Positions 16,577 through 32,675 of a stretch of 64,000 nt of DNA are shown piece by piece (position 1 is the stretch's first letter; each line of letters begins with the position of its first letter). The position numbers and the translations under genes are program-made. The notes below the pieces were generated by a model. The model was given only the letters and a program-made list of their open reading frames with translations, made no database searches and had not been told where the DNA came from. Source of the stretch: a virus (Duplodnaviria; Caudoviricetes); IMG/VR virus record IMGVR_UViG_3300025924_000017, positions 32,001 to 96,000 of that record, one strand, 5' to 3'.

Positions 16577-16969
16577 TCACTGCCCCGGCGCGAGATAGAA
16601 CCGAATCCACTGCGCCACGACCGGGCCATTACCCTTGAAGCCGTCCTCGGACGCTTCCGCCACCCGGGCGATTTCGTCCCATGACTGGTCCGCGCCATCG
16701 GTCGCGAACTGAGCCGCCGCCTCGTGCACGTAATTCGACCCGTAACCGGTCAGCGGGTTTGCCAGAAACGCTCCGCAATTTTCGCAGTGCTGGGGCGTAT
16801 CCGCCTCACCGCCTCCGTAGGAGTAGGGGCCTTTTGGGAACGCATCCGACTCATAGGTGACTTCGTCCGCGATGTTGGCGGGCGCTTTGCCCTCGGCGGT
16901 CAGATCACGCCGGATGGCATTGCCGCAATCTTCACAGTAGAGCGCGGCCCGGTAGACAAAAGCTTTCAT
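16577..16969 (-). CDS. hypothetical protein (YCEDC...FPKGPY..GGGEADTPQHCENC...NPLT)
   Basis: ATG is part of the CGGAGTCGCAAATG leader. Confidence 0.85.
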   Translation of the reverse strand: MKAFVYRAALYCEDCGNAIRRDLTAEGKAPANIADEVTYESDAFPKGPYSYGGGEADTPQHCENCGAFLANPLTGYGSNYVHEAAAQFATDGADQSWDEIARVAEASEDGFKGNGPVVAQWIRFYLAPGQ

Positions 16970-17091
16970 TTGCGACTCCGTTGGTTCTTGATTGTGCGCC
17001 CTTGTAGCATGGAATTATTTTGTCTGTCAAGGGTTGACAGTTCAGATTTCGCCGTGCTAGAACAGCGTCACAACGAAAAACGGAGTCGCGA
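16970..17091. promoter_or_regulatory. divergent sigma70 promoter pair
   Basis: ttattttgtctgtcaagggTTGACA; -10 GCTAGAAC (+) and GCTACAAG (-). Confidence 0.85.
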
Positions 17092-17301
17092 ATGAAACGG
17101 AAAGGTGTAACGGGTTTGAAACTGTGGCGCGCCCGCGTCCAGAAAGTCTACGCCTCGCTGGCCGAACTGCGGGCCTATGACGAGACGTTCGAGATCGTGA
17201 AGCGCTGCGGCTATCGCAACGCGGAATCGCTGTGGAACGCCAACCCCCTATTGCAGGGTTCGACCCACCCGGCGGATTTTGGAGTCGCAAATGCACACTG
17301 A
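17092..17301 (+). CDS. hypothetical protein
   Basis: leader-preceded ATG. Confidence 0.8.
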   Translation: MKRKGVTGLKLWRARVQKVYASLAELRAYDETFEIVKRCGYRNAESLWNANPLLQGSTHPADFGVANAH

Positions 17302-17491
17302 CGAATTCTGCAAGACCTTGGACGCCTTGGATCGCGCGGACGCGATCAAGGCCATTCACGCCGCTTTCCTCCAACTGAGCGCGATGGGCGTGCAGGTCGA
17401 AGTCAACGGCACGACCTATGACAATGAGCCCGCCATCTCGCGGCTGAAAGCCTGCATGGTCTCCGCCGGTCACATCGGGTTCACGTCATGA
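17291..17491 (+). CDS. hypothetical protein
   Basis: leader GGAGTCGCAAATG embedded in the 3' end of the upstream gene. Confidence 0.75.
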   Translation: MHTDEFCKTLDALDRADAIKAIHAAFLQLSAMGVQVEVNGTTYDNEPAISRLKACMVSAGHIGFTS

Positions 17492-17790
17492 CGGCGCGCC
17501 GGGGCACACGCTCGATCCTGCCGAACAGCAACAGCGCCATCCTCGCGCCGATGGCTTACGGGCTACAAGTCCGCTGGCACGAAGAACTGGACTCGCATGT
17601 GCTCTACCACGGCGAGCAGCGCGTGGCGGGCCATCACAACGGCTTTTCCTGCCACGAACTCGCCAAGCGCATCCTGTCCGGCAATGCCGAACGCGCGACG
17701 GCGCAATTCGACTACATCACCGCGTGTGGCGGTCAGCATTACATCACACACGAAGCCTTCGCAACCATCCTCACAGGAGTCACACACTGA
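17488..17790 (+). CDS. hypothetical protein
   Basis: ATGA coupling. Confidence 0.7.
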   Translation: MTARRGTRSILPNSNSAILAPMAYGLQVRWHEELDSHVLYHGEQRVAGHHNGFSCHELAKRILSGNAERATAQFDYITACGGQHYITHEAFATILTGVTH

Positions 17791-17791
17791 C

Positions 17792-17917
17792 ATGCATACC
17801 CGGCACCACGGCCACGGCCATCACGGTGGCGCGGGCTTCGCGCTCCTCGCCTTCATCCCCGGCTATCGGTTTTTCCTGATGCTGATGGCCTTGATCGTGA
17901 TGTGCGGCGGGACGTGA
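17792..17917 (+). CDS. His-rich single-TM microprotein (paralogue 1)
   Basis: MHTRHHGHGHHGGAGFALLAFIPGYRFFLMLMALIVMCGGT. Confidence 0.75.
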   Translation: MHTRHHGHGHHGGAGFALLAFIPGYRFFLMLMALIVMCGGT

Positions 17918-18128
17918 TCCCACCGCCGTCCGGCACTTGCGTTAACTGTTCGCGGCGATTGGTAAACGCGGGCGAACCGCCGGGCTCAGTCCTCCGGGTA
18001 TGTGGTGGCGCGCGCCGCCTTGTCCCACGAGTAGACATGGAACGCGCGATCAGTTGGGAGAATGAGCCTCATCAACTGGTAAGAGGCCTCAAGATCAATC
18101 GCGCGGGCCAATGCTTCGTATAGGGCTT

Positions 18129-18479
18129 TCATGCGGCGGCGCGCGCCTCGCGTACGACCTCAGCCCATAACGCCTTGCACTCGGCGCGATGCTTCGCCGC
18201 CGCCCCGGGCGTGAACTGGGATTCGAAACTGTCACAGCCCTTCATGAGTTTCCCCAACTGATTGTTGAGCGCGATGGACTCAAAAAGCCCGGTGGTTTTG
18301 TCGCCCGCATTGCGCATGCGGCCCGTGTAGACGATCCAGAGGAAGTCCACGCCCTCAGTTTTGTCATAGGCCGCTTGCCACGCTTCGGGCGTGCCAGCCT
18401 TCACGGCTTCCATGTGGAAGTGTGCGATGGTTTCCGCCAGCACACCCTCACCCAGCAAAAAATCGGCGTGGGACTTCAT
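18129..18479 (-). CDS. hypothetical protein
   Basis: ATGA coupling. Confidence 0.7.
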   Translation of the reverse strand: MKSHADFLLGEGVLAETIAHFHMEAVKAGTPEAWQAAYDKTEGVDFLWIVYTGRMRNAGDKTTGLFESIALNNQLGKLMKGCDSFESQFTPGAAAKHRAECKALWAEVVREARAAA

Positions 18480-18649
18480 GCGGCGGCCTTGTCATACTGG
18501 ATTTTGACGCCGAGACCCTTCGCCTCCCGGTACCACACCGGGTAGATCGAGACCGCTCCCCACGGTTTTGTCTCCGTGACCCAGTAGGTCCACTTCAAGC
18601 GCTCGCTCGGCAACCGCCGATAAGCACGCACCAGAAATTCCGATTTCAT
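18476..18649 (-). CDS. hypothetical protein
   Basis: leader-preceded ATG (MKSEFLVRAY...). Confidence 0.8.
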   Translation of the reverse strand: MKSEFLVRAYRRLPSERLKWTYWVTETKPWGAVSIYPVWYREAKGLGVKIQYDKAAA

Positions 18650-18774
18650 TTGCGACTCCGTGTGTGTTGTTGTGCCGGTCTTATCGCATAAAAGATTTTG
18701 TCCGTCAAGTGTTGACATTCACAAAGCGCCCGGCTATAACCACGCCACAACAACGAACCAACACGGAGTCGCAA
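18650..18774. promoter_or_regulatory. divergent sigma70 promoter pair
   Basis: ttttgtccgtcaagtgTTGACA; GCTATAAC (+), GCGATAAG (-). Confidence 0.85.
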
Positions 18775-19281
18775 GTGAATCACGAACTCAGGATCAAATA
18801 CGGCACTAGCCGCGCCGCCAATACCTACGGTTACGGGCTTGTGAGCCTGTACGACGGCGGTAAGAAAGTCGCGGCCTGCAACGGCGGCGGTTACGACATG
18901 CGCGGGACGGTGTTCGGCGAATGGCTCGAAAAGACCTATCAGGAACGCCTCGTCGCGCTGGCGAAGGCAACCAAGGGCGCATTTGCGCGCGCCAACTGGA
19001 ACGGCGAACTGGGTGACGAGTCGAATTACGTCCGCCTCCCCGCTGATCGCAAGGTCGAGCTTTACGGCGGCACCTATTACGAGAACGGCAGCCGCGAGAG
19101 CGTTCACGGCCGCAAGGGTGCCCAGAAATACATCGCCAAGCCGCCGCATGTGACGTTGGATGGCGGTTGCGGGTTCGAGTCGATTTACCGGATCGCCAAG
19201 GCCATCGGCCTCAACGTCCGCACGGTTGACGCTGGGAAGAAACTCGACATCCTCCTGATCGAGGACACGAAACCCGGGTAA
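18775..19281 (+). CDS. hypothetical protein (GGGYDMRGT...LDGGCG motif)
   Basis: leader with GTG start. Confidence 0.85.
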   Translation: MNHELRIKYGTSRAANTYGYGLVSLYDGGKKVAACNGGGYDMRGTVFGEWLEKTYQERLVALAKATKGAFARANWNGELGDESNYVRLPADRKVELYGGTYYENGSRESVHGRKGAQKYIAKPPHVTLDGGCGFESIYRIAKAIGLNVRTVDAGKKLDILLIEDTKPG

Positions 19282-19359
19282 CAGTTGCGTCACGCCTGCG
19301 CCCTGCGTTCCCAAGACGCGCAGGCTTGACACTCCGGCGGATGCGCCCGCGAAGCCATC

Positions 19360-19410
19360 CGCAAGCCTGCCCCGGCGCTGGATCACTCCGGCGTCGGGGC
19401 TCTTTTTTCT
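19360..19410 (+). terminator. intrinsic terminator
   Basis: GC-rich stem gccccggcgc...gcgtcggggc followed by a T-run. Confidence 0.6.
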
Positions 19411-19462
19411 TGGGATGTTAACCAGTCGCGTCGATTGGTAAACGCGGGTGGCGCGGGCGCGC

Positions 19463-19846
19463 TCAGGTGATCTCGCGCCCGGTGTCGGCACACACGACCG
19501 GCTCATCTTCCTCCGCCATGCAACCGAGCGCCACGACGCGCCAGCCATCGCGCAGATTGAGCCGGACGGCTTCGAGCACGTCGCGCAGGTGTGCGCGGAC
19601 CGCCTCATAGCTCAATATCTCGCCGTCCGAGGTCATGAAGAAACACTCATAGCCGCCGGGCCAAGCGAACTTGCCCGCGCGCAGGGCCGACTTGACCTGC
19701 TGCATCCCTTTCAGGCCCAGAACGAAGTCGCGGCCGTGCACCGCGTAAGCCGCACGCAGCGGCGGCAGCTTGTTCCAGTCCGTGACCCGGGTGTCGTAGA
19801 GATCGCCGCCGGTCGCGACGAACAGGTGATCTGGCAGCTTGCTCAT
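19463..19846 (-). CDS. hypothetical protein (AWPGGY..FFMTSDG family)
   Basis: ATGA-coupled; recurrent phage early-region motif. Confidence 0.75.
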   Translation of the reverse strand: MSKLPDHLFVATGGDLYDTRVTDWNKLPPLRAAYAVHGRDFVLGLKGMQQVKSALRAGKFAWPGGYECFFMTSDGEILSYEAVRAHLRDVLEAVRLNLRDGWRVVALGCMAEEDEPVVCADTGREIT

Positions 19847-20187
19847 AGCAGCACCGTGACCAGTGTCGGCGTGCGCGCTGAGTCCTCTTCCTTGCGGCTG
19901 TCGTAGGGCGTGCGGCCGAGCGCGAACGCCATGACGTCGAACTGTGGGCAATCGCGACCGCCGTTCTTGATGGTCCTGCCACTGTCATGGAAGCACACGT
20001 CCACGCAATCCGCCGGGCCGCCCTTGACATAGGGCTGGAACGCAAACGTCACGCGTTTGCCGTTGCTGAGCTTGGCGGTGATCGTATAGTTGCCATCCGG
20101 AACTTCCACGCACAGATGCGGGTTGGCGTTGAACCCGGCGAAACCCGCCGCGACCGCCTCGTCTTGGGATGCTTCCTTGAAATTCAT
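19843..20187 (-). CDS. hypothetical protein
   Basis: leader-preceded ATG. Confidence 0.8.
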   Translation of the reverse strand: MNFKEASQDEAVAAGFAGFNANPHLCVEVPDGNYTITAKLSNGKRVTFAFQPYVKGGPADCVDVCFHDSGRTIKNGGRDCPQFDVMAFALGRTPYDSRKEEDSARTPTLVTVLL

Positions 20188-20302
20188 TTGCGACTCCGTT
20201 TGTTGTGCGCCTCTTATAGCAGCAATTATTTTGTCCGTCAAGTGTTGACATTCAAAAATGTCCGGGCTATAACGGCCGCAACAAACACAAACGGAGTCGC
20301 AA
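20188..20302. promoter_or_regulatory. divergent sigma70 promoter pair
   Basis: ttattttgtccgtcaagtgTTGACA; GCTATAAC (+), GCTATAAG (-). Confidence 0.9.
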
Positions 20303-20731
20303 ATGGCAAAGCTTTCTGCAAACGGCCGCACGATTGTTGGCAGCATCGATTACATCGCCAGCACAAAGCGCGTCATGTCCGATGGCGTCATTCTGGAGAA
20401 CAAGGGCCACGGCTGGAAGGTCGCGGGCAAGGTGAAGCCGGGCTTCACACCCGAGCAGGCTTTCACGCAGGGCAAGGCCAAGCATGAAGCCACACTCGCC
20501 GCGCGTCCTGCGTTGGCGGCCTATCGCGCCGCCCTGCATGACGCCTGCGGGCTCGCCAAGCGCTGGGCGCTCCACACCGCGATCACCTTGATGCCGGACG
20601 ACCCGGATGGCGTGTGGTCGAACTGCGTGGACAGCTATCCCAAAGTCGATGCGGACCTCGATGACATCGTGAGGCTTTGCGGGCTCTACACCCGCGCCAA
20701 GGCAGAGAAGGAGGAGGCGGCGGTCGCGTAA
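20303..20731 (+). CDS. hypothetical protein
   Basis: leader-preceded ATG. Confidence 0.85.
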   Translation: MAKLSANGRTIVGSIDYIASTKRVMSDGVILENKGHGWKVAGKVKPGFTPEQAFTQGKAKHEATLAARPALAAYRAALHDACGLAKRWALHTAITLMPDDPDGVWSNCVDSYPKVDADLDDIVRLCGLYTRAKAEKEEAAVA

Positions 20732-20817
20732 GCGCCGCCAGCGCGCACGTTTACCAATTGCGGAGATTGGTTACCGCGCGGTATGCGGGCGCGGGGCTCC
20801 AAGCCGCGCCGGTTTGG

Positions 20818-21234
20818 TCAACAATCCGGATCGAAGTCGTGCCACTCCTGCACCTCGTCGGGCTGGCCGTCGTGCTCGTATTCGCCTTCGCCCTCCGGGG
20901 CCAGTAGGGTGGCATCCTGTTCCGGGTCCACGCCAATCTCATGATCGACCGGAAAGCCGCATGAGAAGCCGGACTCGAAGTCCACGCGGATGCAGTGTGC
21001 GCCCTCGTACTCGACTTTCTCGACGGTCTCGAACTCGAACTGGAATTCGGGATGCTCGCTCTTCAGTTGCGGGCTCTCCTCCTTGTTCTCGCACGCGTCG
21101 AAATAAGCTTCGTCGGCGAACCGATCCGCTTCAAGGTCGCAACGCTGGCCGACGCGCAACTGATTCACCCGGCACTTGACGACGCCTTGCCGCTCGACCG
21201 TGTTGACCGTGTTCGATCCGTCGCCCCGGCTCAT
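20818..21234 (-). CDS. acidic protein ending DGQPDEVQEWHDFDPDC
   Basis: ATGA coupling; C-terminal motif common in phage proteins. Confidence 0.75.
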   Translation of the reverse strand: MSRGDGSNTVNTVERQGVVKCRVNQLRVGQRCDLEADRFADEAYFDACENKEESPQLKSEHPEFQFEFETVEKVEYEGAHCIRVDFESGFSCGFPVDHEIGVDPEQDATLLAPEGEGEYEHDGQPDEVQEWHDFDPDC

Positions 21235-21491
21235 TGCACGACCTCCGACGCATCGACAAACACCCAATGGTGCGTTGCCTCAAAGCGAAACAGCGAACGC
21301 GGCTTTTCCGCCAGCGTGCGCAGGTCGCCCTCGGCGAGCATGTCCGGCGTGGCGGTGACCACAAGACACGGCCCCTGACCGCCCGGCACGGACTTGACCG
21401 GCGTTCCCGCCGGGATCGTGAGATCGTAGCCGAATTGCGGCGCGGAACTACCCGGCACCCAGCGCTTCGTGATCGTTTCCTTGATCTGCAT
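21231..21491 (-). CDS. hypothetical protein
   Basis: leader-preceded ATG. Confidence 0.8.
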   Translation of the reverse strand: MQIKETITKRWVPGSSAPQFGYDLTIPAGTPVKSVPGGQGPCLVVTATPDMLAEGDLRTLAEKPRSLFRFEATHHWVFVDASEVVQ

Positions 21492-21724
21492 TTGCGACTC
21501 CGTTTTTCGTTTTCAGTGACGCCCTTATAGCCGAAAGAAATTTGTCCGTCAAGTGTTGACAATTCAAAATCGTTCGGCTATATCTATGCACGACACGGGG
21601 ATGGGGCCGTACGGTAAGCCCCTGCGGCGCGGAAGACGCCAAGGCCCCCGGTGCTGGTCCCACGGAAAGACCAACGGCAAGGGGTTCACCGGCCCCGCGC
21701 CCAAAAGATTGAACGGAGTCGCAA
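21492..21724. promoter_or_regulatory. divergent promoter pair with an extra structured ~125-nt + strand leader
   Basis: core at 21537-21561; GCTATATC (+), GCTATAAG (-); hairpins in 21603-21696. Confidence 0.8.
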
Positions 21725-21967
21725 ATGAGCATTTCCCTGAATACCAACCTCACCGACGCGGGCGTCGTTTGCACTTTCGCCGACACCGGCGAATATGCAG
21801 GCATCGTGCGCTCCTCGATCACCAAAGGCGGCGGGATTGAGTGGCTGGCTTGCCCGGCCTTCGGCTTCGGCGTGAACCAGTTGTTCAGCGATCTGATAGC
21901 CGCCGAGTACCTGATCCTCGCATGGGCCATCGAAGCCCGCGCGAAGTCGCTGAGCGTGGCGGGCTGA
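21725..21967 (+). CDS. hypothetical protein
   Basis: leader-preceded ATG. Confidence 0.8.
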   Translation: MSISLNTNLTDAGVVCTFADTGEYAGIVRSSITKGGGIEWLACPAFGFGVNQLFSDLIAAEYLILAWAIEARAKSLSVAG

Positions 21968-22734: not shown

Positions 22735-22947
22735 CTAGTTCACCCGGATGGTTTCGACGTACGCGGCGATCTTGTCGCCAAGCACCGCATCCGTGATCGC
22801 CGGGTCAGCCGCGATGGCAGCCTCGCCGACGCGAAAGATTTTGGGAATGTCCATGATGCCGATCTGGACACCGCCGCACCGCGCGTTATAGGCGCGGTCG
22901 ATGCGGGCCTCGTTGATCTTTTCCTGCTTCGACTGTCTCTTGGGCAT
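22735..22947 (-). CDS. hypothetical protein
   Basis: leader-preceded ATG. Confidence 0.8.
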
Positions 22948-23068
22948 TTGCGACTCCGTTGTGGTTTGTTTGATTGTGACGCTGTTCTAGCATGGATTAT
23001 TTTGTCCGTCAAGTGTTGACATTCACAAAACGACCGGCTATAACAGCAGCACAACAACGGAGTCGCAA
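22948..23068. promoter_or_regulatory. divergent sigma70 promoter pair
   Basis: ttattttgtccgtcaagtgTTGACA; GCTATAAC (+), GCTAGAAC (-). Confidence 0.9.
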
Positions 23069-23308
23069 ATGAACCCTGAAGTGGATTTTGATTTTCACCA
23101 GAGCTTTTCGCTCACGATGGTCTACTGCATGAACCCGAACGCCTTGGCGCATATGCAGGAGCACACCGGCGACGAAGCCCAGTGGATGGGCGACGGCATC
23201 GCCGTCGAGAACCGCTATGCACCGGACCTGAGCGCCGAACTTTGCCGCGCAGGCTTCACGGTCGGACTGCCGGACGGTCGCGTCGTGACGGCGGAGGACC
23301 TGCGCTAA
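23069..23308 (+). CDS. hypothetical protein
   Basis: leader-preceded ATG. Confidence 0.8.
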   Translation: MNPEVDFDFHQSFSLTMVYCMNPNALAHMQEHTGDEAQWMGDGIAVENRYAPDLSAELCRAGFTVGLPDGRVVTAEDLR

Positions 23309-23790: not shown

Positions 23791-23822
23791 CGGCGCGGGA
23801 GATTGCGACTCTCCCCGCGCCG
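23791..23822. terminator. hairpin with TTGCGAC loop
   Basis: cggcgcgggaga-ttgcgac-tctccccgcgccg; identical copy at 24982-25013. Confidence 0.75.
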
Positions 23823-23989
23823 TGTTCGCGACCGCCTTAACCAATTGCGGCGACTGGTTAATACGAGGCTGGAAACAGACGGCGGATCGCAAGTCCGGAT
23901 GCGCCCCGGAAGTTCCGGGCTGGTGGGCTGTCTCCCACGAGGTGCACCTTACAACCGCCGTCTCAACTGATGCACACACCCTAGCGCAG

Positions 23990-24063
23990 GAAAGCTTTAT
24001 TGTCAACCCTTGACAGACGAAATAATCCCCGCTATAAGAGCGCCACAACCAACGGAGTCGCAA
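23990..24063 (+). promoter_or_regulatory. promoter core in inverted orientation
   Basis: tgtcaaccc TTGACAgacgaaataa...GCTATAAG is the reverse complement of the usual core. Confidence 0.8.
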
Positions 24064-24756
24064 ATGTCCGAACACATCGCACACACCGAGCACGACGAGG
24101 AAACCGGCGTCACGCTCAAAATCATCAACGATCCGCATGGCAGCGAGTCGCCCCTCGAACACGATAGCGCGGTGATCTTCGCGGTCCTGCACCGGCGGTA
24201 CATCAACCCGGCGAAAGACGCGGCTGCGTACAAGCGCAACGGCGACTCTTACGACTTCACCACGGTCGAAGGCATTGCGGAATTCGAGAAGGCGAACGGC
24301 GCGATCAACGCGCAGTGGGCCGTGTTCCCGTTGTTCATGTACGATCATTCGGGCACGATCTACAGCGCCAGTTCCGGAGCCAATCCGTTCCACTGTCCAT
24401 GGGACTCGGGCCGCGTCGGTATTATCGCGCTTAAGAAGAGCGAAGTCGGTAAGCCCGGCAAGAAAGTCCGCAACGCCAAGCGCGAAGTGGTCTACACCGT
24501 AGGCAGCTATCTGGAACAGGCGCAAGCCGTCGCCAAGAACTACACCGACTGGGCCAACGGCAACATTTGGGGCTATGTGGTCGAAGACGCGGACGGCGAG
24601 CACATCGACTCGTGTTGGGGCTTCATCGGCGATCACGACGACGAACACCTGATGGCAGAAGCCCACAGCGCCTATCACGACGCGATCAAGGACGCGAACG
24701 CGGCGAACGCCCGCGACCTCGAAGCCGACCGCGCCGATATGTATGCGGGGGCGTGA
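24064..24756 (+). CDS. conserved MGE protein (MYDHSG...CPWDSG...DSCWGF family), function unknown
   Basis: leader-preceded ATG; motif recurrent in phages and plasmids. Confidence 0.85.
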   Translation: MSEHIAHTEHDEETGVTLKIINDPHGSESPLEHDSAVIFAVLHRRYINPAKDAAAYKRNGDSYDFTTVEGIAEFEKANGAINAQWAVFPLFMYDHSGTIYSASSGANPFHCPWDSGRVGIIALKKSEVGKPGKKVRNAKREVVYTVGSYLEQAQAVAKNYTDWANGNIWGYVVEDADGEHIDSCWGFIGDHDDEHLMAEAHSAYHDAIKDANAANARDLEADRADMYAGA

Positions 24757-24981: not shown

Positions 24982-25013
24982 CGGCGCGGGAGATTGCGAC
25001 TCTCCCCGCGCCG
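24982..25013. terminator. hairpin with TTGCGAC loop (copy 2)
   Basis: identical to 23791-23822, followed by tttcgctt. Confidence 0.75.
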
Positions 25014-25141
25014 TTTCGCTTAAGAGGCCTTAACCAATTGGCGTGATCGGTTAACGTTGATAGCGCGGATTATTTTGTCCGTCAAGTGTTGACAATCAAA
25101 AATCTCTGTGCGATAAGACGCCCACAAACACGGAGTCGCAA

Positions 25142-25375
25142 ATGAAGCCGATCACGAGAATAGCAACGTTCGACGGAAAAGAGCACCGCGATGCACTCGC
25201 AGCAGAGCGCCACCTAGACGAGGAATTCGGTCGGCGCGTGTCGGCGCTCGGTCACAAGTTCGCGCCTGCGGGTGTGAAGTACAGCGAGTTCCACAAGCTG
25301 GTCGAGGAGAACCTGCACGTGTTCGCAGAGCTTCTCCGGATCAAGGCCGACTTGAAAATCGAGGAGGAGGATTGA
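25142..25375 (+). CDS. hypothetical protein
   Basis: promoter core 25071-25094 plus leader. Confidence 0.8.
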   Translation: MKPITRIATFDGKEHRDALAAERHLDEEFGRRVSALGHKFAPAGVKYSEFHKLVEENLHVFAELLRIKADLKIEEED

Positions 25376-25603: not shown

Positions 25604-25640
25604 CGCGCCCGCCGCCGATTGCGACCCGGCGGCGGGCGCG
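25604..25640. terminator. 14-bp hairpin with ATTGCGACC loop between convergent genes
   Basis: cgcgcccgccgccg-attgcgacc-cggcggcgggcgcg then ttt. Confidence 0.75.
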
Positions 25641-25840: not shown

Positions 25841-26175
25841 GCAACCACCCCGGCCAGAATTCCATCCGCCAGCGCCGCACGCTTTGCGCGCATCGTGTGC
25901 GCCGGATCGTGGTCCGAAATGTAGGCCGCGAAGTAGCGCTCGTCGAACTTGAAAAAGCCAAGCCGCACGTCGGCCGTGGTCGCCTCGCAGATGGCGAAGC
26001 CCACGCTCGTGTAGTGCATCGGCGGCAGCATTTCGAGAAAGTACCAGTAGGTTTCCTCGTCTACTTCCACAAACCCGGCGAGCAGCCGGGCGCGGTCGAA
26101 GCGCTGGGCATGCGGAAGCTCCGGATTGAGCCAGCCGTAAAACCCGTCCTTATCGAATTTGCCTTCGAACTTCAT
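25837..26175 (-). CDS. DUF1419-like protein
   Basis: EVDEETYWYFLEMLPPM motif; leader-preceded. Confidence 0.6.
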   Translation of the reverse strand: MKFEGKFDKDGFYGWLNPELPHAQRFDRARLLAGFVEVDEETYWYFLEMLPPMHYTSVGFAICEATTADVRLGFFKFDERYFAAYISDHDPAHTMRAKRAALADGILAGVVA

Positions 26176-26291
26176 TTGCGACTCCGTTTGTTTGCAGGCA
26201 CCTTATCGCATAAAACATTTTGTCTGTCAACAGTTGACAATTCAAATTCTGCCGTGCTATAGAGGCGGCACAAACAGAAACGGAGTCGCAA
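26176..26291. promoter_or_regulatory. divergent sigma70 promoter pair
   Basis: ttttgtctgtcaacagTTGACA; GCTATAGA (+), GCGATAAG (-). Confidence 0.85.
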
Positions 26292-26684
26292 ATGAAGTAT
26301 GCAGTCAATGAACAAGGGCAGGTCACCTGCGACGGCGAGCCTATGCTCGTACTCGCGCAGGCCGTTTGGGGCGATGGTGCGCCGAGCGCCGCCGCCCGGG
26401 ATGTTGCCCAGCAGCGCGCCAAAGACGCTTTCAAGGCGCTGGAGTTGATCGAACGCCTCGCCCGCATGGGTTTTTACGCCTACCCGGACGGCGAAAGCTT
26501 TTCCGACGCGCAGGCCGAAGACGCGCTGGTCGTGCTCAACCAGATGATCGAGAACGCGCGCAAGCTTGCCCCGGATGCAGTCCCCGGCCCATATATCACG
26601 ACCGGGCACGACCTCGACGGCGACGGGCCTTGGTATGCGCCGGGCATCGGCGAAGTCGAAGCCCCGCAGGAGGATCAGCCATGA
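26292..26684 (+). CDS. hypothetical protein
   Basis: leader-preceded ATG. Confidence 0.8.
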   Translation: MKYAVNEQGQVTCDGEPMLVLAQAVWGDGAPSAAARDVAQQRAKDAFKALELIERLARMGFYAYPDGESFSDAQAEDALVVLNQMIENARKLAPDAVPGPYITTGHDLDGDGPWYAPGIGEVEAPQEDQP

Positions 26685-26829: not shown

Positions 26830-26994
26830 TCACTCCATTTCCTCTGCCCCATCCTGCACCGTGTGCGCGGTAATGTCGTAACGCTCTAGTTGCGCGTTCA
26901 CGGCATCCATTGCAGCACCGACGCCGGTCTCTGCTTCGCTCCTTGAGTCCGCCGCGATCACGAACGCGACCGTAACAATGAACTGTTTTCCCAT
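26830..26994 (-). CDS. small hypothetical protein (54 aa)
   Basis: leader-preceded MGKQFIVTVAFVIAADS... Confidence 0.75.
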   Translation of the reverse strand: MGKQFIVTVAFVIAADSRSEAETGVGAAMDAVNAQLERYDITAHTVQDGAEEME

Positions 26995-27116
26995 TTGCGA
27001 CTCCGTTGTTTGTTTTCAGTACGGTTGGTATAGCACGACGGATTCTAAAATGTCAACACTTGACGGACAGAATAATTTGTGCGATAAGGTTCGCACAACA
27101 ACCAACGGAGTCGCAA
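26995..27116. promoter_or_regulatory. divergent promoter pair, core inverted
   Basis: tgtcaacacTTGACGgacagaataa is the reverse complement of the core; GCGATAAG (+), GCTATACC (-). Confidence 0.85.
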
Positions 27117-27284
27117 ATGAAGTATGATTTTCGGACAGCCGACAACGCCGCTAAGCCCCACGTCGCTGTTGTGGAAGTGGAGAGCGGCGAGACGGCTGCA
27201 ATTGTCTACATCAAAGACGGGAAAGTTGATGACGCTGAACGTCTGGCCGAGCTTTGCGTGGGGGTGTTCAATGCCCTACCATGA
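27117..27284 (+). CDS. small hypothetical protein
   Basis: leader-preceded ATG. Confidence 0.75.
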   Translation: MKYDFRTADNAAKPHVAVVEVESGETAAIVYIKDGKVDDAERLAELCVGVFNALP

Positions 27285-27805: not shown

Positions 27806-27907
27806 CCACCATGTCATAAAATCCCCCAACTGTGACATGCCGAGTCAACGATTCCAACAGCTTAGGCCCTGCCTGTCACGTTTCACGAAACCTAGGAAAG
27901 GAAACCC

Positions 27908-28048
27908 ATGCATTCAGGCCATCACCGCCACCACGGCGGACATCATGGCGGGCACCACCTCGGCGCGCTCGCCTTCCTCGCCCTGCTTCCCGGCTATCGC
28001 TTCTTTTTGATGCTCGCCTTAGTCGTGGTCCTGTGCGGCGGCACCTGA
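27908..28048 (+). CDS. His-rich single-TM microprotein (paralogue 2)
   Basis: MHSGHHRHHGGHHGGHHLGALAFLALLPGYRFFLMLALVVVLCGGT; RBS aggaaagg. Confidence 0.75.
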   Translation: MHSGHHRHHGGHHGGHHLGALAFLALLPGYRFFLMLALVVVLCGGT

Positions 28049-28141
28049 TACTGTCATTCAAGGGTTGACAATTGACCCCGGCCGTGCGATAAGCCTTGCA
28101 ACGTCGGGATGACCCGGCGACAATCCAAACCGGAGTCGCAA

Positions 28142-28738
28142 ATGGCAAAAGAACAGTTCGCATTGCTCGCCGTGAATGAAACGGACAATTGGGACCAGTC
28201 CATTCTGGACAAGCACGGCTTTGAAGCCGCGTTCGGCGTCTACTTGATCCGCCTCGGCGAGGCCACGCATTGTTGCAGCCTCACCGCGTCAACGTGGGCC
28301 GAGTTTTACGAGAACGCCTTCATTTACGATCACGAAGACGCGGCGGCCGACAAAGCGGCGGAAGACCTCGCCCACGAGAACGGCGGCGAGTTCGGGCGCT
28401 ATCTCACCTACGTCGATCCTGACCAGAAGAGCCGCTACCTCGGCGCGGCGATCACGGTCGAAGTGGACGCGGATGAATTCGAAGGCGGCAAGAAATCCGA
28501 CGCCTATCACGAGGCAATCTGGACGGAAGCCCGCGAGGCCGCAGCCACCGGCGCGATCAGCGAACCGGCGATCCTGTGGAGCGAGGAATACTACGCCCAG
28601 CAGGAAGAGTACGCCGCCAAGCGACGCGCAGAGAACCGCAGGCCCTTGGCGCGCCCGATCCTGCCGTTGTTCTTCGCCGCCGCCCAGCGCGACGGATTCG
28701 CCACGTACGAAGGCGCAATCGAGCACGGCTGGCTTTGA
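28142..28738 (+). CDS. acidic hypothetical protein
   Basis: TTGACA/GCGATAAG promoter plus leader. Confidence 0.85.
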   Translation: MAKEQFALLAVNETDNWDQSILDKHGFEAAFGVYLIRLGEATHCCSLTASTWAEFYENAFIYDHEDAAADKAAEDLAHENGGEFGRYLTYVDPDQKSRYLGAAITVEVDADEFEGGKKSDAYHEAIWTEAREAAATGAISEPAILWSEEYYAQQEEYAAKRRAENRRPLARPILPLFFAAAQRDGFATYEGAIEHGWL

Positions 28739-29001
28739 TCCTGCGCGTGCCCTGCCACGGGCCACGCAGTACACCGGCCCGGCGCTGCCTGTCACGGCAC
28801 GCCGGGCCGGAGCATTTTGGGCGCATTATTTTGTCCTAAAGGTGTTGACAATTGGATTCCGCCCGGCTATAACACCGCCATGCCTCGCGGCGACAGAGCA
28901 GGACCTCTGGAAGGCGCGGCGCGAAGTCCTCCCGGGAAAGCCCGCCAGACGCGGGATCGCAGGGAGGCCGGGACACGCGGACCCGCCGATCTGCGCCGAG
29001 C

Positions 29002-29058
29002 CTACCTTGCGCGATATCGTGCGCTACCGTGCGCACTACCTTGCGCGCTACCGTTCGC
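29002..29058 (+). repeat. CTACCKYGCGC array (5 copies)
   Basis: starts 29002, 29014, 29024, 29036, 29048. Confidence 0.8.
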
Positions 29059-29238
29059 TGGCACGATCTGGGGCGCGCGCCGTCCGGCGCGGCCTGTGCC
29101 CGCGTTTACCAGTTGGAAGGATTGGTTAACGCCGCCTCGGAGTCCGCGTTAACCAATTGCGGCTATTGGTTAAGACCATCGCAAATTTTGTTAACCATAG
29201 GGCGTGCCGATCTGGCACGCCCACGATCTGCCGCGTGG

Positions 29239-29691
29239 CTAGGCGCTCTCCTCCTTTCGAGCCTTGACGCGCACGTAGGGCTTCTCCTCGTAGTGATCGA
29301 TCTTCTCGCCGGAGGGAAGGTCCCACGGCATGAGCATGAAGGTCACGCCAAAGGGATGGAATTCCGCGTTCTGGGGCGACAGGTTTTCAGCCTTCATGTA
29401 ACTGGCGATGTACCAGTCGCGCGCGTCACCCTCGAACGTGAAGCAGGTCTTGTTGGAGCGCAGACGATACGCAGGCAACGCGCCCACCAGATAGATGGCA
29501 TGATCCGTATAGGTGTCACCAGCCTTGAACTGCCCACGGCGCACGCCGTCCATCTCTGCCGTGTAGGTGTTCGTGCGATCATACTCCGCACCTTCGTAAG
29601 TCACACCACTGATCGTGACGGACACGGGCTTGATGTTGGAGAGATGGCCGAGGGATGCGAGGTAGGCCACGACGTTTGCGGAAACAGACAT
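29239..29691 (-). CDS. hypothetical protein
   Basis: leader-preceded ATG. Confidence 0.85.
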   Translation of the reverse strand: MSVSANVVAYLASLGHLSNIKPVSVTISGVTYEGAEYDRTNTYTAEMDGVRRGQFKAGDTYTDHAIYLVGALPAYRLRSNKTCFTFEGDARDWYIASYMKAENLSPQNAEFHPFGVTFMLMPWDLPSGEKIDHYEEKPYVRVKARKEESA

Positions 29692-29802
29692 TTGCGACTC
29701 CGTTGTTGTGCGCACTTTATGGCATGCCTTGTTTTGTCTGTCAAGGGTTGACATATAGAATTCTTCGCGCTATAACGGCAGCACAAACAAACGGAGTCGC
29801 AA
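29692..29802. promoter_or_regulatory. divergent sigma70 promoter pair
   Basis: ttgttttgtctgtcaagggTTGACA; GCTATAAC (+), GCCATAAA (-). Confidence 0.85.
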
Positions 29803-30198
29803 ATGATCTCACACGCAGACGTTCTCAAAATCGACCGCGCCATCTCCGGCAAGCTGGTCGAGCTTGCCATCGCCAAAGGCTACAGCCTGACCGTCCGCAC
29901 GAACGACGACGACGCGCACAACGTCATCAAGTCGCGCGATCCGAAGGTGATCCTCGACGAACTTCATTCCGTGGACGACGAGCGCCTCTATGTGCACGAT
30001 GCAAACGGAAAGCGCCTCGGCTGGATTTACTTCGTGTTCGGCGAATCCGGCTGGGACGTGATCTGCGATCACACCACAGGCCGGGCGATCACGGAACTGG
30101 TGGACACAGGCCCGATCAAGGCGATCTCGGATGGTATCTGCGAGAACCCGGAGAACTGGAGCGCGATACTCGCGCAGAACGGCGCGGCAGTCGGCTGA
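29803..30198 (+). CDS. hypothetical protein (GWIYFVFGESGWDVICD family)
   Basis: leader-preceded ATG. Confidence 0.85.
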   Translation: MISHADVLKIDRAISGKLVELAIAKGYSLTVRTNDDDAHNVIKSRDPKVILDELHSVDDERLYVHDANGKRLGWIYFVFGESGWDVICDHTTGRAITELVDTGPIKAISDGICENPENWSAILAQNGAAVG

Positions 30199-30200
30199 GC

Positions 30201-30267
30201 CTACGGCGCGCTACCGTTCGCTGGCGCGCTTCCTACCGTGCGCGCTACCTTGCGCTCTACCGTTCGC
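30201..30267 (+). repeat. CTACC array (5 copies)
   Basis: starts 30201, 30211, 30233, 30245, 30257. Confidence 0.8.
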
Positions 30268-30480
30268 TGGCGCGATCTGGGGCGCTGGCGCGCGCCAGCC
30301 CGGCGGCGGCGGTATGGTTAACGAAAATCGCCCCGGCGTTAACCAATTCAGTGTATTGGTTAACGCGCCGTTAACCACGTCGGCGCCCTGTCCCGATCTG
30401 GCACAAACGCGTCGAGGCGCAAGCGGCTGAGCCGCTTGCGCCTCGCGTAGGGTTTGGAGTGCGGCGCCGCGCCGCGCGGA

Positions 30481-30693
30481 CTAGTGGGCCGTCATACTCG
30501 GATCGAGTCGGACGCGTTCCAGTGTAACGAGTGCGCCTGACTCGGACTCGGCGATGAGTGCCAAGCATTGCCCGGCCATGAGTGCGGCGCGCGCATGCTT
30601 GAAATTGTCGCGCGCGTCGCCCGCCGCGCTATCGCCCGTGAAAGGGGTTGTAACCCGCTCGCGTCCCTCAGAAAGTTCAACGTGATATTTCAT
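30481..30693 (-). CDS. hypothetical protein
   Basis: leader-preceded ATG. Confidence 0.75.
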   Translation of the reverse strand: MKYHVELSEGRERVTTPFTGDSAAGDARDNFKHARAALMAGQCLALIAESESGALVTLERVRLDPSMTAH

Positions 30694-30946
30694 TTGCGAC
30701 TCCGTTTGCCTGTCGCGCGACTATCGCCGCGACACGTGAAAGCTAAGCCCGGCATTGTCGCAAGTCAAGGCATTAGAGTCGTAATTCGCGACATTCTTTC
30801 CAAGCGGTAAAAGCCCGCTCCCTTAACCCGGCATTATCCGACAATTGCGCACCACAATTATTTTGTCTTTAGACCGTTGACAATTCAAACAAGGGGATTA
30901 GATTGATGGTCACGGCGTTAGGCCGGAATGACAAACGGAGTCGCAA

Positions 30947-31078
30947 ATGAAAATCGCATTTTTCTCCATCGCCCTGTTTATCAGCTTTCAAGCTGGGGTT
31001 TCCTCGTATGTCGCGGACAAGGTTGGCGCGGAAATTACGCGCGACTTCGCGCCGCTCAATGCTATCTTCCAGCACTAA
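30947..31078 (+). CDS. small signal-peptide/membrane protein
   Basis: leader-preceded MKIAFFSIALFISFQAG... Confidence 0.7.
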   Translation: MKIAFFSIALFISFQAGVSSYVADKVGAEITRDFAPLNAIFQH

Positions 31079-31088
31079 GGGGGACACA

Positions 31089-31478
31089 ATGCGTAACGCT
31101 TATCTGACATTCCCGAATCAGTCGAATGACGGAATCTCCTTTACGAAACCTGAGGGACGATTCGGCAATCTCAAGGCGCGCCTTGAGAAAAGCCTTGTCC
31201 GCGCATTTGGCGGATTCACCGCAACCCGCGCGGATGGGGCTTGGCACGATGTCGAGACTGACATCGTGCATGCCGAGTCCGTGACGGTCTATAAAATCGC
31301 GGGCGATTGGAGCACGGAAAACGAGTCCAAGCTTCGCGGTATCGCGGCGCGCTATTGCGCACTCGGCGAGCAAATTTGCGTGCTGGTCGAATTCGCCAAC
31401 GGCGAGTCGGAATTCATTTCGCCGGAGGCTGATCTAGCTGCAACGCTTGGCAGCGCGCGCGCCTTGTTGGCGGCTTAG
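31089..31478 (+). CDS. hypothetical protein (FGGFT..ADGAW motif, DUF3574/PII-like?)
   Basis: RBS ggggga upstream of ATG. Confidence 0.7.
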   Translation: MRNAYLTFPNQSNDGISFTKPEGRFGNLKARLEKSLVRAFGGFTATRADGAWHDVETDIVHAESVTVYKIAGDWSTENESKLRGIAARYCALGEQICVLVEFANGESEFISPEADLAATLGSARALLAA

Positions 31479-31533
31479 TCGAAACCAAGGCGCGCCGCAT
31501 AGTGCGGCGCGCCGCAACCCTACGGAGTCGCAA

Positions 31534-31677
31534 ATGTCCAGTTATCTGACCCTTGAGCCGCGCCCAATCCTGAAAGCCTTGGCGCACTATGCGGCGAATA
31601 CGCGTGCAAGCGAAGTTGCGCGATTGGAGCGAGTCGCAAAGCTTGCGGCGCGCTATTGCGCCAAAGGCGCGGACTAA
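31534..31677 (+). CDS. small hypothetical protein
   Basis: leader-preceded ATG. Confidence 0.7.
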   Translation: MSSYLTLEPRPILKALAHYAANTRASEVARLERVAKLAARYCAKGAD

Positions 31678-31812
31678 GCCCGCGTTAGTGTCCTGTTTAC
31701 CGAGTCGCGCATGCGGTAAATTATTTTGTCTTGCATGCGTTGACATTTGGAAAGCCCGGGCTTAGCTTTCGTGTGTCGCGGCGATTGTGTCGCGCAAATT
31801 TTGGAGTCGCAA

Positions 31813-32160
31813 ATGTCCAAGCCTTCTGATGCCAAAGATAACAGAGTCCGCGAATTGGCACGCGTGCGGGATATGCTGGCTGATGCCGCAAGCTTCGCTT
31901 CAACGGCTGACGCCGTGCTAGTCGAAGTTGCGGCCAAAGGGGTCAAGCATGCGTTGCAATGGACCAAGGGGACACGCGTTACGGACCAAAGGCTAGTCCG
32001 CGATTATGCCCGCGTTCTCGACGTCTCAACGCATGGCAAGCGGACTCCGCTTACGCTCGCCTTGCGCGCCTTTGGTCAAGCCTTGGACAATTTCGCGCGG
32101 ACTGATTACGCGGCTGCGCAATCCGACCTTGCCATGACAGAACGTCTCCTGAAACCCTGA
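31813..32160 (+). CDS. hypothetical protein
   Basis: promoter core ~31719 plus leader. Confidence 0.8.
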   Translation: MSKPSDAKDNRVRELARVRDMLADAASFASTADAVLVEVAAKGVKHALQWTKGTRVTDQRLVRDYARVLDVSTHGKRTPLTLALRAFGQALDNFARTDYAAAQSDLAMTERLLKP

Positions 32161-32181
32161 GGCGCAAGGCGCGGCACAAAC

Positions 32182-32213
32182 AAGGCGCGGCGATATCGCC
32201 GCGCCTTTTTGCT
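32182..32213 (+). terminator. intrinsic terminator
   Basis: aaggcgcggcg-atat-cgccgcgcctt followed by ttt. Confidence 0.75.
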
Positions 32214-32447
32214 TTAGAGCCGCTAGGAACGTTCCAGAGAGGCGCGCCGCAATCGGCCGCCACGATAGGACGCGCGCCGCTTGCGCCTGTCAGTGACGCG
32301 CTAATGAGGCGCGCCGCATGCGATAACCCAACGTTCACTATTCGCGACACTGGCAAAAATAAATGGCACGCGAGTGTTGACAATACAGATTGCGGGTTTA
32401 GATTGATGGTCACGCGGCGATTGCCGCGCCAACAAACGGAGTCGCAA

Positions 32448-32675
32448 ATGCAAAAATTCATTCCCGCTAATCCGAATGCAAACGCTTTCGACGCGCGCGA
32501 CGTCGCGCGCGAAAATGCGGACTTTGGCGAGTCGATTGATCGCGGGCTCGACGCGATCCGCGCGGGCTTGGTCCGCGCCCAAACGGCAGGCATGGCGCGC
32601 CGCTGGGAACTCGCAATGGCAGCGGCCGTAGGTATCGCGGCGTTTGCCCTTCTGTCCCATTACGGGATTGTCTAA
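32448..32675 (+). CDS. hypothetical protein with C-terminal TM
   Basis: leader-preceded ATG. Confidence 0.75.
   Translation: MQKFIPANPNANAFDARDVARENADFGESIDRGLDAIRAGLVRAQTAGMARRWELAMAAAVGIAAFALLSHYGIV

Follow-up and report, generated by a model that had tools for sequence, protein, structure and literature searches.

The leader and the gene block between TerL and portal

The analysed window, a stretch of 64,000 nucleotides, belongs to the 225,611-bp genome of a giant phiCbK-type phage (G000), in which about 24-25 short operons lie between the genes for the large terminase (TerL) and the portal protein. The C-terminal 413 aa of TerL share 60-61% identity with TerL of phiCbK and of Brevundimonas phage Bajun, and the gene order (TerL, block, cysteine peptidase, portal) is that of Bajun. 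In phiCbK-type phages the corresponding block is the direct terminal repeat (PMC3556154); in the relative G003 the block was present at both contig ends. The first cistrons of the operons are served by the 14-nt leader CGGAGTCGCAAATG, and the following features were located.

11805..14540, plus strand: intein-containing TerL gene (PF17289, PF14890), left block border
16967..16980, minus: exact leader; 130-aa first cistron of a leftward 5-gene operon
16981..17080: divergent promoter core with back-to-back -35 elements (TGTCAA-N-TTGACA), two -10 elements and two CA-rich 5'UTRs
17081..17094, plus: leader with one mismatch (A10>G); 69-aa ORF
17280..17293, plus: promoterless internal leader with one mismatch (C1>T), lying in the 3'-terminal part of the preceding gene; 66-aa ORF
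18647..18660, minus: exact leader; 57-aa ORF
18764..18777, plus: leader with GTG start; 168-aa ORF
20185..20198, minus: exact leader; 114-aa ORF
20292..20305, plus: exact leader; 142-aa ORF
21489..21502, minus: exact leader; 86-aa ORF
-35 at 21556 and -10 at 21579, plus: predicted promoter of the 21714 leader
21714..21727, plus: exact leader about 124 nt past the predicted start of its own promoter, GC-rich 5'UTR; 80-aa ORF
22945..22958, minus: exact leader; 70-aa ORF
23058..23071, plus: exact leader; 79-aa ORF
24053..24066, plus: exact leader; 230-aa ORF (phrog_6186, function unknown)
25131..25144, plus: exact leader; 77-aa ORF
26173..26186, minus: exact leader; 112-aa ORF
26281..26294, plus: exact leader; 130-aa ORF
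26992..27005, minus: exact leader; 54-aa ORF
27106..27119, plus: exact leader; 55-aa ORF heading a 5-gene operon
28131..28144, plus: exact leader; 198-aa ORF, start placed by the gene caller at an earlier ATG (28109)
29689..29702, minus: exact leader; 150-aa ORF
29792..29805, plus: exact leader; 131-aa ORF
30691..30704, minus: exact leader, other promoter class (TTGACT..TTAGCT plus leader hairpin); 70-aa ORF
30936..30949, plus: exact leader, promoter TTGACA-16-TAGATT; 43-aa ORF
31523..31536, plus: exact leader without promoter, GC-rich hairpins upstream; 47-aa ORF missed by the gene caller
31802..31815, plus: leader with one mismatch (C1>T); 115-aa ORF
32437..32450, plus: exact leader; 75-aa ORF (gene caller start 32406)
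34459..36276, plus: portal gene (DUF4055), right block border

The search, which allowed up to two mismatches, yielded 25 copies between positions 16967 and 32450 (21 exact, four with one mismatch; 15 on the plus and 10 on the minus strand), whereas 100 shuffles averaged 0.84 and never exceeded 3. This confirmed the near-invariant leader that a preliminary description had reported on 25 genes of both strands, together with its observation that every copy contains GAGTC (25/25). A start codon (24 ATG, one GTG) forms the 3' end of every copy, the register of the 14-mer to the start is exact in 25/25, and the orientation is always sense. The ORFs opened in this way encode 43-230 aa. The proposed restriction to the block held with one exception, as the rest of the genome contains a single additional copy (genome position 138882, minus strand, outside the window), which likewise has a promoter to itself and opens an 82-aa ORF. 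No paralogy was found among the 26 leader-led genes of the genome. GGAGTC stood ahead of a start in 25/32 cases within the block versus 6/69 elsewhere, the extra copy being among the 6; outside the block, GGAGTC is essentially absent as a ribosome-binding site. The information content was about 2 bits at every one of the 14 positions; it did not exceed about 1 bit in the CA-rich 10 nt preceding the leader and fell to about 0.2 bit past the ATG. Not all block genes carry the 14-mer: it marks the first cistron of each transcription unit and a few internal genes, and the promoter-distal genes (approximately 27) show overlapping stop/start coupling with a weak or missing Shine-Dalgarno (SD) sequence.

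Architecture of the expression cassette

The 14-mer constitutes the 3' end of a cassette that comprises, in order, a sigma70-type promoter, a short CA-rich 5'UTR (18-30 nt), GGAG, a 6-nt spacer and ATG; the promoters are often divergent and back-to-back. GGAG is the SD core at a fixed 6-nt spacing, and C1 and UCGCAA are dispensable for pairing with the canonical anti-SD. The same 14-mer accompanies at least three promoter classes, at 13-40 nt from the -10 element and at about +124 in the case of 21714. Exact or near-exact copies without a promoter were found at 17280 and 31523, as well as in relatives (L013, position 1882; L193, 756; L194, 2358), and cassette-type promoters without the 14-mer also occur. 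The leader keeps a constant distance to the ATG but not to the promoter, and some internal copies have no promoter at all, which leads us to favour an element that would act at the level of the mRNA.

Alternatively, GAGTC fused to the SD could be a CcrM site in the initially transcribed region, by which early transcription would follow the methylation or replication state of the phage DNA through host GcrA, the phage GcrA-like protein or another DNA-binding protein. In line with this proposal, GAGTC occurs in all leader copies, GANTC is depleted across the genome (O/E 0.69), so that its retention in the leaders stands out, and one phage gene codes for a GcrA-family protein (57.9 bits). The early leaders of four lineages (G000, L013, L117 and L112) all retain an unchanged GGAGTC, whose combination with free spacers in L117 and L112 would be equally compatible with a DNA-level GANTC function, which counts against reading on the mRNA. 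With the transcription start taken about 7 nt past the -10 element, GAGTC is predicted at about +10 to +22 in 18-19 of the 22 promoter-proximal copies, as in sigma70 promoters of the Caulobacter GcrA/CcrM type (Haakonsen et al. 2015, PMC4647560), and falls within the +2..+30 range of one class of GcrA-regulon sites (PMC4647560). However, the leader flanks (GGAGTCG / CGACTCC) do not match YGAKTCK, and the near variant GGAGTCT ranks 30 of 32 (PMC4647560). No CcrM-type methylase gene (PF01555) was found in the phage genome, and the near-consensus TTGACA-17-TATAA promoters should need no activator. The leader site is in register with the ATG and not with the promoter; exact copies lie at about +124 or, promoterless, inside operons, and some cassette-type promoters lack the motif. 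The invariant C1, CGCAAATG and the strict ATG register are left unexplained. Furthermore, phiCbK has a GcrA homologue, yet its leaders (GGATCGC) are devoid of GANTC, as are those of L115 (CTGGAG). The methylation-state sensor suggested earlier is therefore possible but unlikely, and weaker than an RNA operator.

Conservation of the leader in related phages

The exact 14-mer was detected in three further lineages, mostly ahead of unrelated genes, with 12 copies in L013, three in L193 and three in L195; TerL in the lineage that carries these copies is about 72% identical. Three orthologous leader-led genes encode proteins of 38-41% identity and match at 22-27%, the random level, over the 60 nt upstream, yet the 14-mer is identical; the L013 orthologue of the 28131 gene (39% aa identity) has the same leader. 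Because the 14-mer is preserved at this degree of divergence, all 14 positions are under purifying selection across lineages. In deeper relatives just GGAGTC(G/A) is kept and the spacers are free. The relative L117 runs like cassettes with spacers differing in sequence and length; therefore, the invariance of the leader does not reflect a general ribosome-binding need in this phage group.

We considered whether the pattern could arise with no dedicated factor, the 14-mer being the best-performing start for short-leader first cistrons in the host, which would persist because early expression is strongly selected and which recombination of the cassettes would have spread or homogenised. GGAG at 6-nt spacing, an A-rich -3..-1 and a CA-rich leader make a plausible strong start. 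The cassettes do serve as recombination substrates: between L194 and L013 a 2.07-kb module was gained or lost, bounded by two promoter-plus-leader copies of about 92 bp, with homology stopping at the ATG, and the gene content of the block differs widely between lineages. Against this, the invariant segment has a sharp 5' edge, beyond which the UTR differs from copy to copy in both sequence and length (13-40 nt); gene-conversion tracts therefore do not explain the pattern. The persistence of the 14-mer between such distant orthologues and the variable spacers of L117 also argue against it, and the predicted accessibility of the 14-mer was no better than that of random windows (0.47 versus 0.44 unpaired), a result that weighs against recognition on the mRNA as well. 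We regard an explanation with no factor as rather improbable.

The idea that the leader was selected as a recombination handle, at which co-infecting relatives swap early genes exactly at the start codon, fares worse and appears very unlikely. T4 PeSL cassettes provide a precedent, and the module indel at cassette repeats and the occurrence of one leader ahead of unrelated genes in four lineages agree with it. Nevertheless, 14 bp offers little length for homologous recombination, and the exchange that was seen involved the entire repeat of about 92 bp. Selection for future exchange would be weak relative to letter-perfect conservation, and the promoterless copy inside coding sequence (17280) is hard to fit. 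Modules are indeed gained or lost at the cassettes, apparently as a by-product and not as the role for which the 14-mer was selected.

A putative translation-initiation element of early messages

Our preferred, tentative reading is that the 14-mer is an invariant translation-initiation module of a pre-early cassette, the bases of which are probably read on the mRNA by one putative trans-acting factor. The cassette would consist of a host sigma70-type promoter, the 18-30 nt CA-rich 5'UTR and CGGAGUCGCAA-AUG; C1 and UCGCAA would be recognised by a single sequence-specific factor, protein or RNA, handling all of the approximately 25 first cistrons of the terminal-repeat-type early block jointly. 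Its most plausible action would be translational shut-off or decay after host takeover. If read by one factor, the shared leader would place all these early messages under joint control. The sequences show the copies themselves, their register to the start, their confinement to first cistrons of the block and the purifying selection on them; that these genes are expressed pre-early, that the leader acts on the mRNA and that a factor exists and has this effect is our inference. Against this reading, a search of the phage genome for the trans-acting factor revealed no RegA, RegB, CsrA, CSD, Hfq, ProQ or S1-domain gene.

An RNA operator for coordinated translational control, as put forward in the preliminary description, is the best-supported class given the ATG register, the sense-only orientation, the promoterless copies and the selection beyond ribosome needs, but the suggested link to CsrA/Rsm fails. 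ACGGA, to which a CsrA homologue would bind, is present in 22/25 window copies. The CsrA gene is absent from both the phage and the Caulobacter control genome, no conserved hairpin presents GGA, each target has one GGA, and the base before CGGA is C in 10/12 L013 copies (CCGGA), so that ANGGA is not conserved. A CsrA/Rsm-type operator is consequently close to refuted.

Comparison with known systems

The working mode envisaged here would follow the logic of T4, in which RegB cleaves GGAG in early SD sequences and RegA is a translational repressor that binds early start regions. In both cases the ribosome-binding site carries the mark of an early message class, which can be silenced jointly once the early phase is over; the T4 targets are degenerate, whereas the leader word is invariant, and our phage lacks a RegA or RegB homologue.

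In its putative working mode the leader resembles the start-associated sequences (SAS) known from Cluster K mycobacteriophages (Pope et al. 2011, PMC3203893; 2025 survey, PMC12699233), for which no mechanism has been proven (PMC12699233), a point that counts against our reading. Each is a short asymmetric word (SAS, 13 bp and 11-19 copies per genome; leader, 14 bp and 26 copies) in the ribosome-binding position directly ahead of mostly ATG starts, and combines an SD core with conserved bases unable to pair with 16S rRNA. Both precede only non-structural genes after sizeable intergenic gaps, always in sense orientation, and are kept across sublineages ahead of different gene families. In contrast, there is no sequence similarity beyond GGAG, and the leader phage is a jumbo siphophage with an alphaproteobacterial host. 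The leader word includes the spacer, the start codon and a GANTC site, whereas SAS lies 3-7 bp upstream with variable gaps. Leader copies are found on both strands, where they form the opposite ends of divergent promoter units, and their upstream partner is a sigma70-type promoter, while that of ESAS is 17-bp inverted repeats.

Cluster A mycobacteriophage stoperators (cited in PMC3203893) are likewise asymmetric 13-14 bp sites in many copies oriented with transcription, and an asymmetric, stoperator-like DNA site bound by a monomeric protein would yield a similar orientation bias, which counts against reading on the mRNA. Stoperators act on DNA via a repressor and have no fixed start-codon register; no repressor link is known for the leader.

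An invariant RBS-spacer-ATG word has not been described for T4-type PeSL (promoter-early stem-loop) cassettes or for the repeat promoters of phiCbK, and the latter are CtrA-dependent (TTAAC-type) and have just a loose AAGGATCGCA leader. Like the block, PeSL cassettes and the early regions in the terminal repeats of T5 and phiCbK (PMC3556154, PMC9437464) form arrays of small early genes of unknown function, each gene having its own strong promoter of host type; the region is plastic, and recombination at the repeated regulatory sequence adds or removes modules. The position of the block next to TerL matches that of the phiCbK direct terminal repeat.

Leader copies in the TerL-portal block

The window spans bases 32001-96000 of a 225,611-bp IMG/VR record (phage genome G000) that is rated complete. 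Approximately 50 small genes without Pfam matches, according to the gene calls of a near-identical JGI contig, form a block between the large terminase (TerL) and portal genes (coordinates are those of the window unless marked as genome):

end at 14540, intein-containing large terminase gene, left of the block
from 34459, portal gene (DUF4055), right of the block

The search for the 14-mer CGGAGTCGCAAATG, composed of C1, GGAG, a 6-nt spacer and a start codon, returned 25 sites between 16967 and 32450 when up to two mismatches were allowed. Fifteen were on the plus and ten on the minus strand; 21 were exact and four carried one mismatch, and shuffled sequence gave a mean of 0.84 matches (maximum of three). 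The near-invariant leader of the preliminary description, with 25 copies on both strands, stands as written, and all copies contain GAGTC, as had been claimed. Each copy was sense-oriented, lay at the RBS position and terminated in a start codon (24 ATG, one GTG) that opened an ORF of 43-230 aa. The claim that genes outside the block lack the leader was borne out by the whole genome with one exception, a copy at genome 138882 (minus strand) with its own promoter and an 82-aa ORF downstream; all others were confined to the block and to first cistrons. G000 therefore holds 26 copies of an asymmetric, non-palindromic word, i.e., more than ten per genome. As an RBS, GGAGTC is essentially private to the block: it stood ahead of a start in 25 of 32 cases inside the block versus 6 of 69 elsewhere, the six including the extra copy. 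The 26 leader-led proteins showed no paralogy among them, and for ten of them PHROGs gave families of unknown function and nothing else.

The information content was approximately 2 bits at every one of the 14 leader positions, including C1 and UCGCAA, at most approximately 1 bit in the CA-rich stretch 5' of the leader and approximately 0.2 bit after the ATG. The canonical anti-SD CCUCC can pair with GGAG alone among the leader bases, and longer pairing with the canonical 16S 3' end, which may differ from that of the host, was rejected after inspection by hand. Leader accessibility in predicted folds was no different from that of random windows. Other candidates were also discarded. With just four events among the natural variants (two C>U and two A>G), a wobble-compatible reading had too little material to build on. 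A MITE-like reading of the divergent unit with its 14-bp inverted ends lacked target-site duplications and met many single, unpaired copies. The elemental pause consensus (G-10, Y-1, G+1) did not fit when aligned by hand, as G sits at -9 and -11.

Promoters and transcription units

Most copies closed a cassette in which TTGACA and a (G)CTATAA-type -10 element, separated by 16-18 nt, were followed by a CA-rich stretch of 13-25 nt. Nine divergent leader pairs were found, in which the -35 elements stood back to back (TGTCAA-N3/4-TTGACA) and the leaders pointed outwards approximately 90-105 bp apart, or approximately 210-230 bp in two cases. The same 14-mer was also fed by at least two further promoter classes: one reads TTGACA-16-TAGATT, the other reads TTGACT..TTAGCT and has a leader hairpin. 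The leader was borne by the first cistron of each transcription unit, and approximately 27 promoter-distal genes began at stop/start overlaps with a weak or absent SD. For annotation, the leader corrected two called start codons (28109 to 28142 and 32406 to 32448) and revealed one uncalled gene. This gene and the 5'UTR of one leader copy gave the following features:

31534-31677, plus strand, uncalled 47-aa ORF revealed by the leader
21591-21713, plus strand, GC-rich 5'UTR of approximately 124 nt between the cassette promoter and leader copy 21714, without an Rfam match

The latter 5'UTR is probably structured; the Rfam search of the block as a whole returned no family. A full cassette-type promoter, TTGACA-17-TATAAC, was observed at 28845-28875 on the plus strand (genome 60845) with neither the 14-mer nor GAGTC downstream. 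A second promoter-like family, TTGACA-N17-(c)GACAGT/GACAAC, was leaderless and lay outside the block (38795 and 62506, plus strand; genome 150894, 156888 and 221949); these may be promoters belonging to a different temporal class. The ends of transcription units carried palindromes of the form TTAACCAAT-N7-ATTGGTTAA:

15478-15506, palindrome
15526-15548, palindrome
23829-23857, palindrome
25030-25056, palindrome
29149-29173, palindrome
30336-30366, palindrome

The half-site of these palindromes is similar to the CtrA half-site TTAACCAT. The terminal repeats of phiCbK-type phages are dense in CtrA sites (PMC9437464).

Phage group and identity of the block

At its C-terminus, the G000 TerL shared 60-61% identity with the TerL of Caulobacter phage phiCbK, of the phiCbK relatives and of Brevundimonas phage Bajun, which all belong to the Dolichocephalovirinae. 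The direct terminal repeat of phiCbK begins inside TerL codon 652 and extends approximately 10 kb downstream over small unknown genes (PMC3556154). Bajun has the same gene order as G000 (TerL, small-gene block, cysteine peptidase, portal), and the 308-kb relative G003 carries the block at both contig ends. Because of the synteny with phiCbK and Bajun, we infer that the G000 block is the terminal-repeat region, which would enter the host first and would have been collapsed in the assembly. In phage T5, the pre-early role is served by near-consensus host-type promoters, and the promoters of the G000 block, being of this kind, would be compatible with such a role. No named phage with the same cassette was retrieved by megablast or blastn. 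The divergent leader pair was found in no bacterial genome, and it therefore gave no prophage or host clue.

Conservation of the leader in relatives

An exact-word scan of IMG/VR returned a single multi-copy contig, L013, with 12 exact copies and one degenerate copy within 11 kb, adjoining a TerL gene approximately 72% identical to that of G000. Scanning metagenome contigs for the divergent leader pair added four contigs: L196, identical to L013; L194, an L013 variant (97-99%) that contains additional modules; and L193 and L195, further lineages with three exact copies each. The conservation in relatives on which the preliminary description had made its case depend was thus found, the exact 14-mer standing in L013, L193 and L195 mostly before unrelated genes. 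Between lineages, promoters and UTRs differed and most genes were unrelated. In the three orthologous leader-led genes that could be paired, the proteins were 38-41% identical and the 14-mer was identical, while the 60 nt upstream of it were 22-27% identical, which is the random level. Invariance ends abruptly on the 5' side, since immediately before C1 G000 has A and L013 mostly has C. Taken together, these comparisons indicate that all 14 leader positions are under purifying selection rather than being the product of recent duplication or gene conversion.

In deeper relatives, less of the word was found. Contig L117 (TerL 61% identical) has similar sigma70/CA-rich cassettes and retains only GGAGTC(G/A), with spacers that vary in sequence and length; 15 of its 20 GGAGTC..ATG sites lie within 7 kb after TerL. 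L112 has another promoter type, yet reads GGAGTCAGNCAATG; Bajun carries AAGGAGTCC in approximately one-third of its repeat-type leaders, and L115 has CTGGAG leaders with free spacers. The phiCbK leaders read AAGGATCGCA..CCATG behind CtrA-type TTGTTAAC promoters, and the repeat promoters of this phage depend on CtrA (PMC9437464). Repeated promoter-leader cassettes are therefore a trait of the family and GGAGTC is a trait of the clade, the frozen spacer being peculiar to the G000/L013/L193/L195 group. The leader could be simply an optimal RBS kept within recombining cassettes. We consider this unlikely, because L117 tolerates variable spacers and ribosome binding in itself thus does not demand the invariance.

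Module exchange at the cassettes

A comparison of L194:1-2987 with L013:5013-5922 revealed an indel of a 2.07-kb module carrying three more cassettes. The module was flanked by two copies of an approximately 92-bp promoter-plus-leader sequence, and homology ended one base past the ATG. One L194 leader copy had a 2-nt insertion (..CAAATATG). Modules are thus gained and lost by crossover at the cassettes, as happens at the T4 PeSLs, and the recombining unit is the whole repeat. Of the recombination handle suggested in the preliminary description, the gain and loss of modules at the cassettes holds; the involvement of the entire repeat makes this look like a by-product, and it is quite improbable that recombination is the function for which the leader was selected.

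Level at which the leader may act

Several observations favour the mRNA level. The register with the ATG is exact, and the distance from the -10 element ranges over 13-40 nt, with copy 21714 at approximately +124. The word is asymmetric and invariably sense, the 14-mer is common to three promoter classes, and some cassette-type promoters lack it. In addition, exact or near-exact copies without a promoter exist:

G000 17280, within the end of the upstream gene
G000 31523
L013 1882
L193 756
L194 2358

We tentatively read the leader as a start-associated operator in the mRNA of pre-early first cistrons, recognised by a putative factor for coordinate control, and give this reading slightly less than an even chance. 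One such factor would read the leader of the pre-early messages, and the first cistrons would be controlled together. The RNA operator envisaged earlier is thus retained as far as register, orientation and promoterless copies are concerned; its link to CsrA/Rsm is not. CsrA was absent from G000 and from a Caulobacter control, which may not represent the actual host. A CsrA/Rsm site was rejected, as there was no CsrA gene and no conserved hairpin presenting GGA, each target has one GGA where CsrA usually binds two or more sites, and A(N)GGA gives way to CCGGA in most L013 copies. A CsrA site is accordingly the least credible of the readings considered. Family searches for RegA, RegB, CSD, Hfq, ProQ and S1 found none of them in the phage. 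The leader differs in this respect from the RegB/RegA targets of T4, where RegB or RegA is phage-encoded; G000 has neither homologue.

The leader could instead be a site in DNA, bound by GcrA at GANTC or by another DNA-binding protein. Besides the GAGTC of all copies, the phage encodes a GcrA-family protein:

genome 214461-214868, plus strand, GcrA-family protein of 135 aa (57.9 bits to PF07750), outside the window and without a leader upstream

GANTC sites of the GcrA regulon lie at approximately -20 or +2..+30 of sigma70 promoters (PMC4647560). The leader GANTC falls into the latter class in most copies (+10 to +22 from predicted transcription start sites), several copies being far from any promoter. 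GANTC is also depleted genome-wide (545 observed versus 788 expected under a maximal-order Markov model, O/E 0.69). However, the leader (GGAGTCG / CGACTCC) mismatches the extended site YGAKTCK, and its near variant GGAGTCT placed 30th of 32 (PMC4647560). Moreover, no CcrM-type methylase (PF01555) was found in the phage genome, consensus promoters should not need GcrA, and phiCbK has GcrA and leaders without GANTC. Thus, the GAGTC and the GcrA-like gene support the methylation sensor proposed at the outset, the flanks, the missing CcrM gene and the phiCbK leaders oppose it, and we hold a DNA-level site to be improbable. As a separate observation, CTAG was also under-represented genome-wide (O/E 0.49).

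Comparison with start-associated sequences

The start-associated sequences (SAS) of Cluster K mycobacteriophages are 13-bp asymmetric words with 11-19 copies per genome that sit 3-7 bp ahead of the mostly ATG starts of non-structural genes, combine AGGAG with conserved non-pairing bases and are kept before differing gene families (PMC3203893). Their role was still unproven in 2025 (PMC12699233). The G000 leader matches SAS in every descriptive respect: more than ten copies per genome, position and sense at the RBS, non-pairing conserved bases, restriction to early/non-structural genes that follow larger intergenic gaps and maintenance across sublineages before different gene families. In contrast to SAS, it belongs to a proteobacterial jumbo phage, takes in the spacer and start codon, carries GANTC and is joined, on either strand, to promoter cassettes of the sigma70 type. 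With the SAS sequence, GGGATAGGAGCCC, the leader has just GGAG in common, and the 17-bp inverted repeats (ESAS) upstream of SAS are replaced by a sigma70-type promoter. Because the sequence likeness is limited to GGAG and the upstream element differs, we class the leader as an analogue of SAS, not a homologue. No description of the leader for phiCbK-type phages was found in the literature, and a search for the word gave unrelated primer matches only.

SAS, known from 2011 onwards, come from actinobacteriophages only and still lack a mechanism. The G000 leader offers a cleaner case, letter-perfect across lineages that exchanged nearly all early genes, and its phage family has relatives in a model system (phiCbK and Caulobacter). 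The degree of conservation is striking and the system lends itself to testing, providing a precise experimental entry to the way in which a giant phage coordinates its first wave of expression; the kind of element is already known, and the mechanism stays at the level of a proposal. The leader could also serve as a tag for pre-early genes in related metagenomic phages.

Terminator loops complementary to the leader

The anti-leader search identified three strong GC-rich terminator hairpins whose loops, AUUGCGAC(U/C), are exactly complementary to the spacer GUCGCAA(U):

23792-23821, plus strand, terminator hairpin
24983-25012, plus strand, terminator hairpin
25604-25640, plus strand, terminator hairpin

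Each marks the 3' end of one of three consecutive rightward operons, which start at 23058, 24053 and 25131; fold energies ranged from -29 to -35 kcal/mol (55-nt windows), and the loops measured 7-9 nt. The stem sequence is common to two of the hairpins and different in the third. Complements of 7 nt in weaker predicted loops were frequent by chance under lax hairpin criteria, and only these three terminators stood out. No counterpart was found in L013, L117 or L112. The loops are a lead to an anti-leader partner of the spacer and a candidate for the concrete partner in a more elaborate scheme, in which GAGUCGCAA would serve as the docking site for an RNA switch that acts phage-wide and a phage-made RNA or protein would jointly turn off or stabilise approximately 25 pre-early messages. 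The GANTC within the leader could add a DNA-methylation input via the phage GcrA-like protein. We regard this scheme as a long shot; if true, it would give a start-associated-sequence system a defined mechanism for the first time, and would do so in a phage family whose Caulobacter and Brevundimonas members can be cultivated and are amenable to genetics. Outside the window, TTGCGAC also occurred in the loops of two further predicted hairpins, at genome 106395 and 113684, both on the minus strand.
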